Of a stretch of 64,000 nt of DNA, positions 3,727 through 12,581 are shown piece after piece; within the stretch, counting starts at the first letter, position 1, and each line of letters begins with the position of its first letter. The notes under the pieces were generated by a model. The model was not told where the DNA came from and searched no databases. It saw only the letters and a program-made list of their open reading frames with translations. The DNA comes from Candidatus Liptonbacteria bacterium (GTDB lineage: Bacteria > Patescibacteriota > Minisyncoccia > UBA6257 > 2-01-FULL-56-20), in assembly GCA_023244895.1 (NCBI GenBank), contig JAHFLL010000001.1, positions 268,009-332,008 of the forward strand, written 5' to 3'. The position numbers and the translations under genes are program-made.

Positions 3727-4083
3727 TTCGGTAATTCGTAAGCCGGATTCTGTGCCTCCGAAAAATCGGAGCGGTAATCATTTCTCTGGACCCTCGATTA
3801 CTCTCGGGTTCTTGCGGCACAAACCATTGCTTACGCAATGGAGTACGACCTTGCACCCAGTAAGGATTTAGCCGTTTCACTCCTGCTTTTTTGTCCCTAT
3901 GGCAGGATTAAGCCAACTAGCTTGGGATCGGGCTCTCTTGGCTCTTTCGGACCAAGACGTCACTGCTCGCACCTCTCGCATTACTGCGGTCCGCCGTTAG
4001 CGGATACGCTTGTCTCGCGAAGCGAGACTGGTGTCCGGACTTTCCTCTCCTTGAAAAATCAAAGAGCGATTACCTGAATTACG
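3726..4083 (-). ncRNA. rnpB: RNase P RNA (bacterial type A-like)
   Basis: Minus strand carries CR-I GGAAAGUCCGGAC (complement of 4033-4045) and CR-IV ACAGAAUCCGGCUUAC (complement of ~3737-3755). P1 pairs GUAAUUC with GAAUUAC. Ends are approximate. Confidence 0.75.
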
Positions 4084-6140: not shown

Positions 6141-7217
6141 ATGAAGGGCGTGAATTTTCCGATATTCAATATTAAATCCGGAGAAGGCTCCAGGAAGTTT
6201 AATCTGAGTAGTCCCGCAGAGCGCAAAGAATACTTCGCGCAAAAAGCCGGACCAGAGATAGAAAAGATTAGGAAGTATTTGGCCGAGGGTAAGACCTTCG
6301 TGGGATTCCTGCTGGGCAAGAAGAACTCCGGCAAGGGGACTTATTCTAAATTGATAATGGAGGCGGTAGGAGGGGACAAGATTGGTCATGTCTCTATCGG
6401 CGACATTGTACGCGACGTGCATGGCAGTTTGTCTGATCCCGCCAAAAAGAAAGAACTAGGAGAATTCCTTTCCAAGAATTATCGCGGCTTTCACACCCTT
6501 GAAGAGATAGACGATTTAATTGAGGGTCGCAGTCAGTCCACGCTCGTATCCACAGAGCTGATTATCGCCCTTTTAAAATATGAAATTAGCAAGCGTCCCA
6601 GGCAGGCCATATTTATTGATGGTTTTCCGCGCGGTTTGGATCAGATTGCGTACTCAATGTTTTTGAAAGATGTTCTGGGCTACAGAAACGATCCCGACTT
6701 TTTAGTCTTTATAGATCTTCCGACGACAATAATAGAGGCACGCATCAAGACTCGCGTTATCTGCCCTATCTGCAAGGTTCCGCGCAGCACCAAGCTTATG
6801 GCTACAAGTGAGGCCGGATATGACGCGGAAAAGAAGGAATTCTATTTGATGTGTGATAATCCGGAGTGCAATAAGGCGCGCATGGTGCCTAAAGAAGGGG
6901 ACTCTCTCGGCATAGAGCCTATTCGAGACCGCTTGGAGCTGGATGAGAAAATAATCAAGCAGCTATTGGATGTGAGCGGTTGGTCTAAGATTTATTTGCG
7001 CAACGCTCTGCCGGCGGATAAAGCTTCAGAAGTTGTGGACGATTACGAAATAACTCCAATGTACGACTATGAGCTAGACGAGGCGTCCGGCAAGGTTAAG
7101 ATAAAAGAATCGGTTTGGACCGTCGCGGACGACGAGGGAGTGACCTCTTGCAGTCTTTTACCCCCGCCGGTGGTGGTTACTTTTCTAAAGCAGATTGTGC
7201 AAGCCCTAGGACTCTAA
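6141..7217 (+). CDS. Adenylate-kinase-like NMP kinase with N-terminal extension and Cys4 LID
   Basis: P-loop GKKNSGKGTYSKL. LID-like segment RVICPICK...CDNPEC...RDRLELDE. Confidence 0.45.
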   Translation: MKGVNFPIFNIKSGEGSRKFNLSSPAERKEYFAQKAGPEIEKIRKYLAEGKTFVGFLLGKKNSGKGTYSKLIMEAVGGDKIGHVSIGDIVRDVHGSLSDPAKKKELGEFLSKNYRGFHTLEEIDDLIEGRSQSTLVSTELIIALLKYEISKRPRQAIFIDGFPRGLDQIAYSMFLKDVLGYRNDPDFLVFIDLPTTIIEARIKTRVICPICKVPRSTKLMATSEAGYDAEKKEFYLMCDNPECNKARMVPKEGDSLGIEPIRDRLELDEKIIKQLLDVSGWSKIYLRNALPADKASEVVDDYEITPMYDYELDEASGKVKIKESVWTVADDEGVTSCSLLPPPVVVTFLKQIVQALGL

Positions 7218-7230
7218 CTTTCCGCTCGGC

Positions 7231-7941
7231 CTAGTATCTTTTGACGGTGTATTTGCGCTCCACAAACTGGAAAGCGCCGGATTTTATTATTTTAATGGTT
7301 TCATCCACCCCGTCGAAAACATCCGGCAACCTGAATATTTCCTCTTCTCTAGTCCAGGCATTTTTACCGCCTTCGATATTATCTCTTAGCGTGCCGGTGG
7401 GATTTTCTGTCTTTACTATGAAAAAATATTTATCTTCCAGTAATTCGCCTGATTCTGAATAGTCCATTTTGTGCTTTACGCCAGAGATGGATAATTCAGC
7501 GGAAAGCCCCGCCTCTTCCTGAAGCTCGCGCGCGGCAGTCTCTAAAATCGTCTCGCCCCAGCGCACCTTCCCCGTGATAAACCCATGATAACCAAAATAT
7601 GGCTGTTTGAGTCTCTGTTGTATCAAAAAAAGTTCTTCGCCATTCCCGCTGTTTTTTATACAAGAGACTGATACTCCCAGCTTGGCCTGTCGCTCAAAGA
7701 CCATTTGGGCGGAGTCGGTATCGAAGCGATTGGCGAATTCTTTGCCGGGCGCGGTGAGTTCGTAGCCCGCGTCGGTTTTACGGATAAGATTTAATTCCGC
7801 GAGCCGGCGTAGGTGAAAGCTAAATTGATCGCTAGAAACCCCTTCCACATTCAACTCCGAAAACTTGCGTTCCGGGTGAAATATTAACTCTTTCAATATC
7901 TTGGCCTGGATGGGGTGAATATCTGCTTGGTTTATAGACAT
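7231..7941 (-). CDS. Winged-helix HTH plus NUDIX hydrolase domain protein
   Basis: N-terminal HTH (LRRLAELNLIRK). Nudix box GKVRWGETILETAARELQEEAGL. Confidence 0.65.
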   Translation of the reverse strand: MSINQADIHPIQAKILKELIFHPERKFSELNVEGVSSDQFSFHLRRLAELNLIRKTDAGYELTAPGKEFANRFDTDSAQMVFERQAKLGVSVSCIKNSGNGEELFLIQQRLKQPYFGYHGFITGKVRWGETILETAARELQEEAGLSAELSISGVKHKMDYSESGELLEDKYFFIVKTENPTGTLRDNIEGGKNAWTREEEIFRLPDVFDGVDETIKIIKSGAFQFVERKYTVKRY

Positions 7942-8512: not shown

Positions 8513-8548
8513 TTGACATTATATTTACTACGCTATACTATAGTATAG
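8513..8548 (+). promoter_or_regulatory. Promoter plus operator module 1: TTGACA-17-TACTAT overlapping the 16 bp perfect palindrome CTATACTATAGTATAG
   Basis: TTGACA at 8513-8518, -10 at 8536-8541, palindrome at 8533-8548. The ATG at 8550 implies a leaderless mRNA. Confidence 0.6.
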
Positions 8549-8549
8549 T

Positions 8550-8900
8550 ATGCAAAATAAAAAAATGAACAAGAAAGAAAAGTGGCAGAACGAGGATAGT
8601 GAGGAGTTATTTAAAGCCGTGCTTGGTCTTAAAAATACGTCCGAAGCTAGGGCTTTTTTTAGAGATCTTTTAACCGAGAAGGAGATTTTGGAGTTCGGTC
8701 AGCGCTGGAAGGTGGCCAGGATGTTGTCCGAGAGTGTTCCTTATTCAGAAATAGGGCATAGAACCTGGATGAGTCCCAGAACCATAGCGCGTATTCAAAA
8801 ATGGCTTAAAAGCGGGAGGGGCGGTTACCGCTTAGCAATTCATCGGTTGGAGCAGAAAGCGGGTAAAAGGCCCGTTGCTGGCAAGAAAAGAAACAGATAG
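8550..8900 (+). CDS. YerC/YecD family TrpR-like DNA-binding protein
   Basis: Motifs FFRDLLTEKEILEFGQRWKVARML, PRTIARIQKWL and SGRGGYRL match the YerC/TrpR-like pattern. Confidence 0.75.
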   Translation: MQNKKMNKKEKWQNEDSEELFKAVLGLKNTSEARAFFRDLLTEKEILEFGQRWKVARMLSESVPYSEIGHRTWMSPRTIARIQKWLKSGRGGYRLAIHRLEQKAGKRPVAGKKRNR

Positions 8901-8963
8901 GCAAGGGGGTTGGGTAGAGGAATAAGTAAGCACCCCCCTTGCTTCCATTGAATATTTAAACCC

Positions 8964-8998
8964 TTGACTTTTTTATCCACCGCTATACTATAGTATAG
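8964..8998 (+). promoter_or_regulatory. Promoter plus operator module 2: TTGACT-16-TACTAT overlapping a second copy of the same 16 bp palindrome
   Basis: TTGACT at 8964-8969 and palindrome at 8983-8998. The shared 19-mer CGCTATACTATAGTATAGT matches module 1. Confidence 0.55.
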
Positions 8999-9004
8999 TG
9001 CACT

Positions 9005-9100
9005 ATCGGGGGTGACTACTGGGAGAGAGTAGAGAAGAGTAGAGGATAAGAGAGAAGAAGAGGAAGATAAGAAAGAAGAGAGAGGGTGGCGTGGGGTGGA
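9005..9100 (+). repeat. Polypurine (GA-rich) tract of about 95 nt
   Basis: Plus strand is almost entirely G/A (gagagagtagagaagagtagaggataagagagaagaagagg...). The two minus-strand ORFs across it are low-complexity artefacts. Confidence 0.7.
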
Positions 9101-9182
9101 ACACATTAGGTAGATGAGTGGGGTGAAATTGTAATGGGAGTACGAGCCGAGGGGCACTAGATTGGTTAAACAAGAGAACAAT

Positions 9183-9275
9183 ATGACTAAACAAAATATA
9201 AATTTTAATACGAGCGCCGGGCATCACAACCAACTCTTCCGAGAAGAGATTGGTTGTGGTTTTTATTTTTCTTAA
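9183..9275 (+). CDS. Candidate 30-aa leader peptide ORF running through a terminator hairpin
   Basis: ATG...TAA encodes MTKQNINFNTSAGHHNQLFREEIGCGFYFS. No SD, like host genes. Weak evidence. Confidence 0.2.
   Translation: MTKQNINFNTSAGHHNQLFREEIGCGFYFS
9225..9270 (+). terminator. Strong rho-independent terminator
   Basis: Hairpin CACAACCAACTCTTC / GAAGAGATTGGTTGTG followed by TTTTTATTTTT. Confidence 0.65.
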
Positions 9276-9310
9276 TAAGAAACAACACTCATTCTCCTCT
9301 CGGAAGTTCC

Positions 9311-9356
9311 GAGGGGTGTCGGCAAACCGAGCCCCTCACGAGAGGGGCTCTTTGAT
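9311..9356 (+). promoter_or_regulatory. Alternative-hairpin (attenuator-like) element upstream of the GCS2-like gene
   Basis: GAGGGGT (9311-9317), GCCCCTC (9331-9337) and GAGGGGC (9342-9348). The middle segment can pair with either flank. The perfect 9 bp stem GAGCCCCTC/GAGGGGCTC is followed by TTTG. Confidence 0.4.
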
Positions 9357-9382
9357 ATTGGCAGAACAAGAGGGAGGACGAT

Positions 9383-10396
9383 ATGAACGCTAAGGACCTG
9401 GTCCAGTACTTCACGCGCGGACTGAACGGGCTCTATGAGCTCGGAACAACAATCGGGATTGAGGTTGAGACCCAGTTCGTGGATCTGGGTGGTCGTGCCA
9501 TCCGGACGGAAATCGCCCAGCAGATCTTCCGGGGTTTCGTCGCTAGCGGTTGGAGGGTCGTGACGCGCAAGGGCGAGTTGCTGACGGAATTAATCTCTCC
9601 CGGGAATGATAGGTTGCTCTACGAGCTTGGCCGGCACAATTTGGAAATCAGTGCCGCGCCACGTCCCGCCGACGCGGTCGTCCCTGCCGTCCTGCGCTTA
9701 CTGGCGGAACTTTACGGCCAGGCTTGGAACTTGGGCGTTCGTCCGCTTCTTGCTCCGATCTTGGAGACGGAAGAGGACCTCCTGGTCGTGCCGGACGAAC
9801 GGGACGCGCAATGGGTAAGGACAGACGGGCGAAGCGCGCTCAATAATCTAACCAGATGCTCGGCGGTGCAGTTTACTATCGATGTGCCGCTCAAGGACGC
9901 GATACGCTGCGTCAATGTTCTGAACGAGATGAAATACTCCTTCCTGAACGAGTATCCCCAGGAGGAGTTGTGGCGGCGCTATATCAAGGAATCAGCCGCC
10001 ACCTATTCTCCCAGCCGCTACGGCGGTCCGGATCGCTTCGCCGATCTGGATGATTACTGCGCGAAACTGGCCGAGCATGGCGTGGTGCGAGACGGTAGGG
10101 TGGTGCCGTGCGAGTCGGCGGGGGAGGTGGATATCCCGCTCTTCCTGCGTTCAGTCTGGTGGTACTTCAGATTGAAGCGTTATGGTCCGAAGCTTTGCCT
10201 GGAAGTGCGCCCGTTCGCGCGGGGCAGGGATTCGAAAATCCAGGAGGATCTGGATCGGGTGCTGCAAATTCTGGGCATCTCCGGTCGGGAGCGCATGGAG
10301 CGAACGGTCGCCAGCCTTCGGGACAGTCTTGAGACACTGAAGTTCCAGGCGGTCCGCCGGCCCGTGTCTCTCGATTGGCCTTCGGGTGGTCACTAA
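9383..10396 (+). CDS. Carboxylate-amine ligase (GCS2/YbdK-like) family protein, GC-rich island B
   Basis: N-terminal TIGIEVETQFVD resembles the YbdK GIELEMQ motif. About 62% GC. Strong SD GAGGGAGGA 5 nt before the ATG. Confidence 0.4.
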   Translation: MNAKDLVQYFTRGLNGLYELGTTIGIEVETQFVDLGGRAIRTEIAQQIFRGFVASGWRVVTRKGELLTELISPGNDRLLYELGRHNLEISAAPRPADAVVPAVLRLLAELYGQAWNLGVRPLLAPILETEEDLLVVPDERDAQWVRTDGRSALNNLTRCSAVQFTIDVPLKDAIRCVNVLNEMKYSFLNEYPQEELWRRYIKESAATYSPSRYGGPDRFADLDDYCAKLAEHGVVRDGRVVPCESAGEVDIPLFLRSVWWYFRLKRYGPKLCLEVRPFARGRDSKIQEDLDRVLQILGISGRERMERTVASLRDSLETLKFQAVRRPVSLDWPSGGH

Positions 10397-11237: not shown

Positions 11238-11246
11238 AGATGTTTA

Positions 11247-11276
11247 TGCAGAGATTCTAACAGAAGGAGTCGGGAG
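11247..11276 (-). promoter_or_regulatory. sigma70-like promoter TTGAAT-17-TAGAAT for the RF gene
   Basis: Minus-strand TTGAATctcccgactccttctgtTAGAAT, followed by a 16 nt leader before the ATG. Confidence 0.5.
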
Positions 11277-11285
11277 ATTCAATCT

Positions 11286-11314
11286 GATTGACTCGTTTTT
11301 GTCTCGGAGGCATA
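11286..11314 (+). promoter_or_regulatory. Divergent promoter TTGACT-17-CATACT for the island C small peptide gene
   Basis: ttgactcgtttttgtctcggaggcatact, back-to-back with the RF promoter. Confidence 0.45.
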
Positions 11315-11337
11315 CTCTTTGTCAGGAGGGCAGGGCG

Positions 11338-11484
11338 ATGATACCTCACCCGGCGGTAGTATTCGGGCTTGATGCTGTTACGGTGCGACAGTTGATCGTG
11401 GCCGGCATCGCGGTCTGCGTCGTGTCCGTCGCCCTCGGAGTCGCGGGCGCGGCCGGACTCGTCTACCTCGTTTCTTTGATCTAG
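11338..11484 (+). CDS. 48-aa hydrophobic (single-TM) peptide, GC-rich island C
   Basis: Peptide MIPHPAVVFGLDAVTVRQLIVAGIAVCVVSVALGVAGAAGLVYLVSLI. SD CAGGAGGG 8 nt upstream. Confidence 0.4.
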   Translation: MIPHPAVVFGLDAVTVRQLIVAGIAVCVVSVALGVAGAAGLVYLVSLI

Positions 11485-11866
11485 AGCTCGGACAGGCGCG
11501 CATGGGGTATCCTACGCGCCACGGGATGTGTGTCCCATCCGGGGCGGGGATGCTCTGGTCGTGCTGTTCAGTGTTGCCTCTGGGTAAGCGGCATGCTTTG
11601 CCGCTCGGTCTTTGGGCAACATTGCTCAGTTGCGGACGACTGGAGCATCTCCGTGTTTTCACAAGTCTTGATTCGGTGGGCGGTCTTGCTACTGGCAGGC
11701 ATCACCGCTTGAGGCGTGTGACCTCAGCCGAATCATGGGGCGCGGTCTGGTGGATTACCCAGGCTAGGCAGGCGGGGCAATGAAGCCAGCCGCGCCCTCT
11801 CATAGCGACCTCCGGAACCTACGGGAACCGGGGGTTTTGACTTATTTAGGGTCATATTCCAGCCAC

Positions 11867-11894
11867 TTGACATGGGCTGTGGATATGCTATAAT
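11867..11894 (+). promoter_or_regulatory. Consensus sigma70 promoter TTGACA-16-TATAAT
   Basis: ttgacatgggctgtggatatgcTATAAT, a perfect match to both hexamers. Confidence 0.6.
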
Positions 11895-11900
11895 GCATCT

Positions 11901-12500
11901 CAAGTGGGCGAGTGGGGATTCTTGGTCGGCGTCGGCTCTACGGAGCTACTGGCCACCTTCCCTCCCGAGCCTGCGGCGCTTTCGCCGCGTCGACTCGAGC
12001 GAGCGGGGGATTTCTTGGGCAGATTCGTCTGACCCACCCCCTCGTCCACAACCCTGCCGGCGGGTTCCACCGGTAATCGTTCTTGCGGGGCACAGCGCCG
12101 TCGGCACCGCGCACCGCCCCAAGACCATACGGGCCTGACCACATGGCCCACATTGGAAGGGAGGAAGAAAGTTCCGAAACCGAGACGTAGACGTTTGTGG
12201 AGGAGGGAAGACCAAATCTACAGATGGGTCTCGGGATGGCTGATCCCCATCCGGACGCGCTTCAAGGGATAAAATCCTAGGGCTAATAACCCGAAGCGTG
12301 AAAGTAGGATCGCAGGTAAGTAGGCGACCCAAAGCAGGGCGCCACCAACGGAGGTAACCACTCGGGAGTTCGCACGACCTTCGGGCCGGCGACGAGACGA
12401 CGGGGCACGCGCGACACGCATCCGCCCCAAACCCGAGAGAGCGATACTTCCAATCGGCGCCCTGCTATAGTCAACGGCCCCAGAGCATCAAAGCTCGGGG
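11901..12500 (+). ncRNA. Candidate GC-rich structured non-coding RNA of unknown family (about 600 nt)
   Basis: Lies downstream of the consensus promoter. No plausible ORF on either strand, only overlapping Arg/Pro-rich artefacts. The 5' GGGGAUUCUUGGUCGGCGUCGG loosely resembles a tmRNA 5' end, but no tag ORF or T-arm was found. Confidence 0.25.
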
Positions 12501-12581
12501 TCGTTTGCGTTTTGGGGATATGGTTCGCCCTCCCTTTCCTTTCCTGCTAGAATAACTTTTACTGGAAGATATAAATAAGCC

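Follow-up and report, generated by a model that had tools for sequence, protein, structure and literature searches.

Leader-peptide attenuation is a textbook mechanism, and in the literature searched we found no description of it in bacteria of the Candidate Phyla Radiation (CPR; Patescibacteria), whose members are uncultivated and genome-reduced and are presumed to be auxotrophic for amino acids. Here we describe a regulatory leader in a 64-kb window of a Candidatus Liptonbacteria genome (the window being the whole stretch of DNA that was analyzed, to which all coordinates refer). The leader lies between hisR, which encodes a TrpR-family repressor, and a gene predicted to encode a carboxylate-amine ligase. 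This element is probably a ribosome-mediated (leader-peptide) attenuator that reads the supply of histidyl-tRNA and is layered on repression by HisR, a mechanism for which sequence, folding and covariation provide the support.

In layout the element resembles hisL (RF00514), in which a short open reading frame (ORF) with consecutive His codons likewise overlaps the first strand of a chain of helices ending in a terminator, and the predicted logic is the same, with a stall at the His codons leading to antitermination. Predicted His attenuators of the Bacillus cereus group, Peptostreptococcaceae and Erysipelotrichales (PMC9413887) share this hisL-type design with the CPR element. The CPR element differs from hisL in having two to three His codons rather than three to seven, in a "leader peptide" that is mostly the C-terminal tail of hisR and not a separate ORF, in a target gene of the Glu-Cys-ligase fold instead of a his biosynthesis or transport gene and, in the window lineage, in a relay of six segments with two terminators. 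The RF00514 His_leader model scored 16.9 bits at 9221-9319 (E = 3.2) against a gathering threshold of 49. We regard the element as working like the classical his and trp attenuators without being a member of RF00514; new are the leader fused to a repressor tail, the phylum and the target gene.

The combination of a TrpR-family repressor at the promoter with a leader-peptide attenuator downstream of it recalls E. coli trp (TrpR and trpL). Together the two devices would respond both to the free amino acid and to charged tRNA, so that one CPR transcript would join free-histidine sensing by HisR with the sensing of charged tRNA-His by a ribosome on the hisR tail. The first hairpin of the CPR leader (T1, formed by segments S1 and S2) parallels the trp 1:2 hairpin. 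Unlike in trp, the amino acid is histidine, the repressor gene is itself part of the transcription unit, in most cases as a fusion with the leader, and T1 has its own U-run.

The repressor side has been described as the HisR (YerC) regulon of Firmicutes, Actinobacteria and Synergistetes (Ashniev et al. 2022, PMC9413887), a comparative set that holds no CPR genomes. In that work YerC is HisR, a histidine-responsive TrpR-family repressor whose DNA binding is histidine-dependent in vitro, and the HisR box is a 20-bp palindrome with the consensus cacTTTAnnnnnnTAAAgtg, validated in vitro for Ruminococcus gnavus. The CPR repressors belong to the same family (PF01371/TIGR02531), a 20-bp palindromic box of the same consensus covers their promoters, and hisR would again be autoregulated; the window lineage differs in carrying the box variant CGCTATACTATAGTATAGTG. 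HisR and RNA attenuators are controls of different lineages in the published set, whereas both would act on one operon here.

With the riboswitches, T-boxes and ribosomal-protein leaders of Rfam, the element has in common that it is a cis-regulatory 5' RNA able to fold as terminator or antiterminator. It differs from them in that no family was reached at threshold, that there is no conserved ligand-binding core and that what is conserved as the sensor is a reading frame with regulatory codons. An Rfam scan of the window at gathering thresholds returned no family in the leader region, and a permissive scan (E <= 10) of 8850-9450 returned only chance microRNA-like hairpins and the His_leader match already mentioned. 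A previous sequence-only reading of this stretch had seen no T-box or common riboswitch core, in agreement with these scans, which speak against its other suggestion of a riboswitch-like element.

The leader consists of a 30-codon ORF followed by a chain of alternative helices (Table 1). Two consecutive His codons of the ORF (CAT 9222-9224 and CAC 9225-9227) lie at the 5' arm of T1, both arms of which are within the ORF; the U-run GUUUUUAUUUUUCUU directly 3' of the stem makes T1 a hairpin of the intrinsic-terminator type inside a reading frame. From T1 onward, five mutually exclusive helices each share a strand with the next (S1:S2, S2:S3, S3':S4, S4:S5 and S5:S6), the second of them built on a long imperfect inverted repeat (9236-9262 with 9280-9306) and the last being a second terminator-like hairpin, T2, which passes a simple terminator scan and has a weak U-tract as its 3' tail. 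S4:S5 and T2 are nearly isoenergetic. The region 9215-9362 folds with -64.5 kcal/mol (z = -7.5), and none of 200 shuffled sequences folded as well. Three independent assemblies (L065-L067; L-numbers denote fetched comparison loci) carry the region without a difference, and it is therefore not an assembly artefact.

Despite sequence differences, all five helices fold in the window and in the related loci L064, L078, L079 and L072, and in five relatives 18-20 of the 20 S2:S3 pairs are retained, with U-A to C-G and G-C to A-U as compensatory exchanges. The minimum-energy fold of the unmasked RNA contains T1, S3':S4 and T2. When a ribosome footprint was masked at the His codons, the minimum-energy fold switched from T1 to S2:S3; a footprint masked at the stop codon gave S3':S4 together with T2. 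The sequence-only reading had pointed to a strong terminator at about 9225-9270, to a 30-codon ORF crossing its stem and to three segments, GAGGGGT (9311-9317), GCCCCTC (9331-9337) and GAGGGGC (9342-9348), of which the middle one could pair with either flank. It had taken the whole for a cis-regulatory leader of terminator/antiterminator topology, to be checked by alternative-structure folding and by covariation in relatives. All of this is borne out: the terminator is T1 (stem 9223-9260), the ORF is also key to the element, the middle segment pairs on either side with the energies given for S4:S5 and T2, and the folding and covariation back the topology. That reading overlooked the His codons, the HisR boxes, the origin of T1 and of the 3' half of the ORF from the hisR tail, and the occurrence of the element throughout the CPR.

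Table 1 Features of the hisR-ligase region, in positions of the window
Feature	Position	Strand	Details
Promoter P1 with HisR box O1	8513..8550	+	-35 TTGACA 8513-8518, -10 TACTAT 8536-8541
hisR (yerC/yecD-type TrpR-family repressor), 116 aa	8550..8900	+	PF01371 1.7e-17; TIGR02531 (yecD_yerC) 1.1e-18
Insertion, ~370 nt	8846..9221	+	relative to the fused arrangement; between the HisR core "...RL" ("...IHRL") codons and the His codons
Hairpin T0 past the new hisR stop	8899..8944	+	-20.4 kcal/mol, poor U-tract
Promoter P2 with HisR box O2	8964..9000	+	-35 TTGACT 8964-8969, 16-nt spacer, -10 TACTAT 8986-8991
5' untranslated region (UTR) of the leader ORF	9001..9182	+	~183 nt; G/A-rich, C-poor (G 39%, C 8%)
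Polypurine core	9021..9089	+	64/69 nt purine (93%), five T, no C
Leader-peptide ORF, 30 aa	9183..9275	+	ATG 9183, TAA 9273-9275; predicted peptide MTKQNINFNTSAGHHNQLFREEIGCGFYFS
T1, S1:S2	9223..9272	+	S1 9223-9239 with S2 9243-9260, 17 bp, one bulge, -21.7 kcal/mol
Antiterminator 1, S2:S3	9236..9306	+	S2 9236-9258 with S3 9283-9306, -28.4 kcal/mol; equivalent to A:B of the family
S3':S4 hairpin	9294..9318	+	CCUCUCGGA / UCCGAGGGG, -14.4 kcal/mol; sequesters S4
Antiterminator 2, S4:S5	9311..9337	+	GAGGGGU 9311-9317 with GCCCCUC 9331-9337, inner 4-bp helix, -18.8 kcal/mol
T2, S5:S6	9329..9359	+	S5 9329-9337 with S6 9342-9350, 9 bp, -19.6 kcal/mol
Shine-Dalgarno (SD) sequence and regulated gene	9370..10396	+	SD GAGGGAGGA 9370-9378; gene from 9383, 337 aa

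These folds suggest the following course of events. With no ribosome on the leader, T1 would form and transcription would stop at its U-run. With histidyl-tRNA plentiful, a ribosome would reach the stop codon at 9273 and cover S2 and the start of S3, S3':S4 and then S5:S6 (T2) would form, and transcription would stop before the ligase gene. With histidyl-tRNA scarce, the ribosome would stall on CAU-CAC and cover S1, leaving S2 to pair with S3; the freed S4 would capture S5 as it emerges, T2 would be blocked and RNA polymerase would read into the ligase gene. Abundant histidine would also shut P1 and P2 through HisR.

Comparative evidence comes from distant relatives. A genome scan with an alignment of the ligase returned 63 distant CPR loci; in 37 of them the ligase is immediately preceded by a hisR/yerC homolog of the same orientation. 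The spacers between hisR and ligase are mostly ~76-150 nt long (commonest ~105 nt), and the corresponding interval in the window, 9276-9382, measures 107 nt. An ORF with HH, HHH or HxH ends 70-125 nt upstream of the ligase ATG in ~60 of 64 distinct loci, with the His cluster 10-17 codons before the stop; in most loci the ORF is the hisR tail, and in others it is a free-standing leader. Loci without an adjacent hisR have such leaders with a promoter of their own (MNIIFGNFYHHNFLFLGRGLS, MLFAINTSHHHSTSVARGG, MYAYFGQHHHINALSLREDCF and MNIAKLNFQNHHNQLSLAKEG). CAU and CAC interchange among loci, so that codon identity is conserved and not the nucleotides.

In its fused form the hisR tail consists of HH(H), about four codons, a segment A (e.g. 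CCAAUCACGGAGAGGGUU) and the stop; ~30 nt past the stop follows a hairpin B:C (AACCCCCUCC-loop-GGAGGGGGUU) and then UUU(U/A)CGUUUG, a U-rich tail present in most family members (GGGGGUUUUCGUUUG). Segment A has its complement in B and in part of the terminator loop. Across 32 distant loci, the antiterminator A:B had 81% of alignment cells paired, compared with 37-55% when the partner was slid by one to three columns; 15 of its 18 pairs were changed on both sides, and none of 500 shuffles reached its score. Its strongest covariation falls at positions within the terminator loop, and the similarity between A and C is therefore no explanation for it. The terminator B:C was 93% paired in the same loci, with 7 of 10 pairs changed on both sides. 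The relay of the window has the same polarity as this simpler three-segment form. A covariance model (R1) built only from the 32 hisR-fused loci found the element just upstream of the ligase in free-leader loci that had not been used in building it (E from 1e-17 to 1e-4). Its best match in the window, at 9214-9306, places CAUCAC on the His codons of the model, S2 on A and S3 on B, with 14.8 bits and an E value of 0.21 for the window and 0.96 when pooled. The element is thus widespread in CPR genomes and supported by covariation.

Where hisR and the leader are apart, the His codons stay with the leader. In L018, L021 and L031, which have ~1.2 kb between the two genes, hisR ends right after its core and a free-standing His leader lies at the ligase. 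In the window, L072, L077 and L016, which have detached leaders, the His codons are kept in the leader and lost from the re-terminated hisR. The HH tail is also missing from many other close HisR homologs, whose genomic contexts were left unexamined. Because the separated hisR is without HH and the leaders retain it, the His tail tracks the attenuator and not HisR.

Several loci depart from the common form. L016 (3810-3992), like L081 and L082 (950-1160), belongs to a four-segment subtype (1:2, 2:3 and 3:4); the latter two have a fused tail ending in ...HHHAHTFR before the stop, and in L016 hisR ends early and a separate 20-codon leader, MNIPRAIWPNSKHYHAHTFR followed by its stop, comes just 39 nt downstream, by sequence a second, independent un-fusion of the leader from hisR. 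The leaders of L068 and L070 (1340-1500) are very short (MHHPTISRERGLG and MHHLNISRERGLG); their segment C (GGGAGGGG) overlaps the SD sequence of the ligase and no U-run follows it, an arrangement that looks like a translational, SD-sequestering version of the switch.

The free-standing leader of the window appears to derive from the fused form. In L064, whose ligase is 87% identical to that of the window, hisR runs straight into the T1 homolog, and the interval corresponding to 8832-9234 of the window is 33 nt long; L078, with a ligase at least 90% identical, has the same fused form. The 3' half of the leader ORF and T1 are therefore the former C-terminal tail of hisR, and the stop codon of the ORF, which aligns with the hisR stop of L064, is the ancestral hisR stop. 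Relative to this arrangement the window carries the insertion listed in Table 1, which brings a new hisR end, a second promoter with a HisR box and a G/A-rich 5' UTR, and which would have turned the HisR tail into a free-standing leader ORF under a HisR-controlled promoter of its own. L064 and L078 lack the insert; L072 and L077 have it and share with the window the detached architecture (new hisR tail, P2/O2, G/A-rich UTR and leader ORF). Their leaders, MIKQNRNFNTSAGHHSQLFREEIG... in L072 and MIKLNGNLNRNAAHHNQLFRE... in L077, both keep HH. The new hisR tail of the window, EQKAGKRPVAGKKRNR, is lineage-specific. We infer that the fused state is ancestral and that of the window derived, because the "...GRL(A)HH..." junction of L064 and L078 recurs throughout the CPR loci.

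Phylogeny failed to decide between insertion and deletion, as the relatives are mosaic (83-87% identity for the HisR core, 85-89% for the NUDIX protein and 97% for the ADK-like protein). HisR of L072 is 84% identical to that of the window over its full length and 87% over the core, and that of L077 80% and 86%. In the comparison of window positions 6141-7941 with L072 and L064, the ADK-like protein is 97% identical between the window and L072, the adjacent NUDIX protein 85% and the HisR core 87%; in L078 the ligase is at least 90% identical to that of the window and HisR just 61%. Recombination among related strains is likely. Two origins of the insert were rejected: it is not a decayed hisR coding copy, as the UTRs of the window and L072 have no significant similarity to hisR coding sequence, and a search for further copies, as expected of a mobile element, found none in the window or elsewhere among the fetched loci. 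What the insert has in common with P1 is limited to the -35 and the 19-nt box. P2 together with ~10 nt downstream of it resembles the L078 hisR promoter with a score of 37, which none of 300 shuffles reached, and the leader start region compared with the L078 hisR start gave p ~0.08. Tentatively, the insert may have arisen by recombination or duplication of a module of promoter, UTR and start, an origin that fits because P2 and the first transcribed bases resemble the L078 hisR promoter. At L078 1520-1660 that promoter has a hybrid box, GCGCTATACTAAGATAAAGCGC, followed by a ~95-nt purine-rich 5' UTR (GGGAGAAGGTGATAAAAGGGAAGGG...); it resembles P2 and the UTR start of the window, and the inserted promoter module could stem from a promoter of this type. 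The T2 hairpin, used as query in a metagenome scan, brought up a single, unrelated contig.

What the sequence-only reading had called operator modules are predicted HisR boxes. O1 (CGCTATACTATAGTATAGT, 8531-8549) is a palindrome that encloses the -10 of the sigma-70-like promoter P1, and O2 occupies 8981-9000 at P2, with a predicted transcription start at ~8998-9000. The two agree at 19 of 19 nt (8981-8999 in O2) and are the only such sites in the 64 kb; both are 20-bp palindromes across the -10 with a symmetric variant half-site in which CTATA replaces CTTTA, and O2 of L072 is a perfect 20-bp palindrome. In ~40 CPR loci (e.g. L008, L010, L034 and L047) the published consensus box, cACTTTAnnnnnnTAAAGTg, is at the homologous position of the hisR promoter, over the -10, and a second box that includes the -35 TTGACT is often present at CPR hisR promoters. 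The CPR hisR boxes lie within 75 nt upstream of hisR and many end 1-10 nt before its ATG, so CPR hisR mRNAs may be leaderless; that of the window, read from P1, probably is, because O1 ends at the hisR ATG. Hairpin T0, possibly a partial terminator or an insulator, is poorly conserved in L072 and L077.

The most conspicuous feature of the leader, its purine tract, is its least conserved part. The sequence-only reading had described 9005-9100 as an almost pure G/A tract; the tract is there, and its purity was overstated, as this interval is 84% purine and only the core at 9021-9089 reaches the 93% of Table 1. Outside the core, no 60-nt window in the 64 kb reaches 90% purine or pyrimidine, and the maximum purine value in 200 first-order Markov simulations was 83%. 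Tandem Repeats Finder reads the core as degenerate tandem repeats with periods of 21 (2.6 copies), 10 and 5, and in the fold ensemble the tract is largely unpaired and overlaps none of the alternative helices. The UTR of the window is 86% identical to that of L072 outside the tract and 69% identical to that of L077; it is 36 nt longer than that of L072, and the alignment places this excess within the tract. The tract measures ~31 purine-rich nt in L072 and is G-rich mixed sequence in L077, and L064, L078 and L079 have no such UTR or purine tract before the leader. The UTRs of all three detached-leader lineages are nonetheless G-rich and C-poor (G 38-39%, C 8-19%) at low sequence identity. No tract of comparable purity was found just upstream of the ligase in L001-L063, where 100% "pyrimidine" windows in L024 and L044 are unchecked and could be masked N runs. 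Because it is shorter in L072, mixed in L077 and without a UTR to hold it in L064, L078 and L079, the tract is a recent, lineage-specific tandem expansion of a shorter purine-rich core, most likely without a sequence-specific role. At the end of the UTR, 9161-9176 (ATTGGTTAAACAAGAG, just 5' of the leader ATG) is 81% identical over 16 nt to 9357-9372 (ATTGGCAGAACAAGAG, 5' of the ligase SD and ATG), a likeness that could be chance or a duplicated translation-initiation region.

This history does not favor the tract as the functional core of the leader, the protein-binding or riboswitch-like role that had been proposed for it. Were the stretch from P2 to T1 a stand-alone small RNA of ~270 nt, with the tract as a sponge that titrates ribosomes or an RNA-binding protein and with the ORF incidental, its good promoter-like site, its strong terminator and a largely unpaired tract of unique composition in the window would be accounted for. 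We consider this very unlikely, however, given the poor conservation of the tract, the homology of T1 and the ORF 3' half to the ancestral hisR tail, the retention of an ORF with HH in L072 and L077, and the lack of an Rfam match. Slightly less likely still is an attenuator in which a metabolite or a protein of the TRAP, Hfq or CsrA type binds the purine leader and selects among the hairpins. In its favor are the triplet-like repeats that the tract shows at periods 5 and 10 and the TrpR-like nature of the neighboring regulator, but the longest (G/U)AG chain at 2-3-nt spacing has four members (9027-9044), where TRAP needs 9-11, and 21 of 500 composition-matched shuffles reach four. The unconserved tract also lies ~130 nt upstream of T1, away from all alternative helices, no riboswitch or T-box family matched, and the fused relatives would work without such a leader. 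A reading that would add to the attenuator instead of replacing it is that selection acts on the G/A-rich, C-poor composition of the UTR, as a shield against Rho (the opposite of a C-rich rut site) or as an unstructured standby platform for ribosomes. The shared composition of the three UTRs, the purine-rich start of the L078 hisR 5' UTR and the weak leader SD agree with it; tract length and sequence vary freely, the tandem repeats fit neutral slippage and the UTR of L077 is just partly purine-rich, and we hold the idea to be doubtful.

Other readings accept the His codons and explain them differently. As the His residues lie within the HisR polypeptide in most loci, the HH(H) tail might be a functional part of HisR, for metal or ligand binding, with the hairpins ordinary terminators and the antiterminator a by-product. 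This seems quite unlikely to us: free-standing leaders keep HH where the separated hisR loses it, HisR ends after its core in L018, L021 and L031 and is tailless in many close homologs, segment A covaries with the terminator loop, and leaders of a ligase paralog, described below, have YWF at the same place. A sensor acting mainly on translation or mRNA stability, for instance through access to the ligase SD, instead of on termination at T2, is unlikely as well, if less so. The weak U-tract of T2, the segment C of L068 and L070 that overlaps the SD with no U-run, and the complementarity of S5 (CCCCUC) to an SD-like sequence argue for it, whereas the U-rich sequence after B:C in most family members, the canonical intrinsic terminator T1 of the window lineage and a window SD that sits 20 nt past T2 and is unpaired in most folds argue against it. 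The idea that the small ORF encodes a precursor of a ribosomally synthesized and post-translationally modified peptide for the ligase was dropped, as the ORF tail is homologous to hisR tails and the HH/terminator logic is family-wide.

We therefore return to the leader-peptide attenuator, on which a number of points weigh negatively. The transcription starts, the termination events at T1 or T2 and the translation of the leader are predictions. The leader of the window has just two His codons, compared with seven in E. coli hisL, and its SD is weak (AAGAGAA); an SD is missing altogether from the leader of L077. The U-tract of T2 is poor (CUUUGAUAU), and the minimum-energy fold masked at the His codons retains T2 (-24.4 kcal/mol for T2 with small helices vs -18.8 for S4:S5), so that antitermination at T2 would have to be kinetic, with S4:S5 forming before S6 is made. 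R1 scores the window variant at only the 14.8 bits given above and has no match at E <= 1 in L064, L072 and L016. From the position of segment C on the SD and the missing U-run in L068 and L070 it follows that some family members may act on translation instead. The target gene belongs neither to histidine biosynthesis nor to histidine transport and has no evident physiological link to histidine. Finally, the mechanism implies transcription-translation coupling close enough for attenuation, which CPR bacteria are not known to have. The element is compact and could be tested with reporters.

The regulated ligase gene begins with an SD sequence, as the sequence-only reading had noted; the GCS2-like assignment it had made holds at the level of fold and fails by Pfam and NCBIfam. 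The ligase of the window gave no Pfam, NCBIfam or PDB sequence match. An AlphaFold model built on the alignment (predicted local distance difference test score, pLDDT, of 90.6) matched the plant Glu-Cys ligase 2gwc (E 2e-11, TM 0.69), E. coli GshA, YbdK (1r8g) and glutamine synthetases, which points to a carboxylate-amine ligase with the Glu-Cys-ligase/glutamine-synthetase fold, at fold level only. The family occurs CPR-wide with a usual length of ~295 aa (197 proteins at E <= 1e-3); 3 of the 120 matches listed out of these 197 carry PF04107, and among the matches listed every named homolog is from the CPR. The ligase of the window is ~40 aa longer than this norm, and its C-terminal extra part (10280-10396) is of low confidence (pLDDT <75 from about residue 300). 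In L064 (2271-3274) the ligase is called as two ORFs of 131 and 202 aa, a frameshift or pseudogene or an assembly error. In L072 (3040-4066) the detached leader and relay precede an unrelated 268-aa gene without a Pfam match and then a Peptidase_S66 gene, not the ligase; its T2 has a ~45-nt loop insertion that folds into a hairpin of its own, and the U-run of its T1 is degraded.

A distant paralog of the ligase (253-280 aa, ~22% identity, colinear) is preceded in nine of nine paralog loci by an element of the same type, with F/Y-W-F where the His leaders have HH, and so provides a natural control with other regulatory codons. These elements (L003 5803-5965, L014 5754-5893, L023 5838-6002, L033 5797-5931 and L062 5804-5946; also L011, L022, L028 and L042) lie ~1.9 kb downstream of the His-leader ligase, with aromatic free-standing leaders such as MNNLYKNTNFYWFTYNLSRGRCFC, MHQRINTFSYWFINKPRSGKVF and MRNLINSYFWFINNS; no such paralog is present within the 64 kb of the window. 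The attenuators offer a first functional handle on a conserved ligase family without annotation in the sources searched, by which the ligase would be tied to histidine and the paralog to aromatic amino acids. Speculatively, the paralogous Glu-Cys-ligase-fold ligases of CPR bacteria may each stand behind a leader attenuator (HH(H) or F/Y-W-F) that reports the amino acid it serves, as parts of an amino-acid-specific gamma-glutamyl salvage or buffering pathway in auxotrophs, with the ribosome that finishes HisR as the histidine sensor; we put this forward as a tentative idea, on balance somewhat improbable.

Genes that recur right after the ligase encode GGACT/AIG2-like gamma-glutamyl cyclotransferases, class-I amidotransferases/Peptidase_C26 and class-II amidotransferases (GATase_4), for example at L004 4993-5448, L034 4891-5358, L037 4982-5461, L023 5045-5818, L050 4945-5664 and L001 1542-2369 (- strand), and an AstE/AspA-like gene is often found on the strand opposite the ligase. 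These neighbors suggest gamma-glutamyl chemistry. In the window the gene after the ligase is release-factor-like and on the opposite strand, and between it and a NUDIX gene is a GC-rich stretch of ~1.3 kb (11240-12580; 52-57% GC vs ~47% elsewhere) with no convincing ORF on either strand. Elsewhere in the window, an RNase P RNA at 3727-4082 on the - strand scored 103 bits against an Rfam gathering threshold of 100, a marginal score that fits a divergent CPR lineage.

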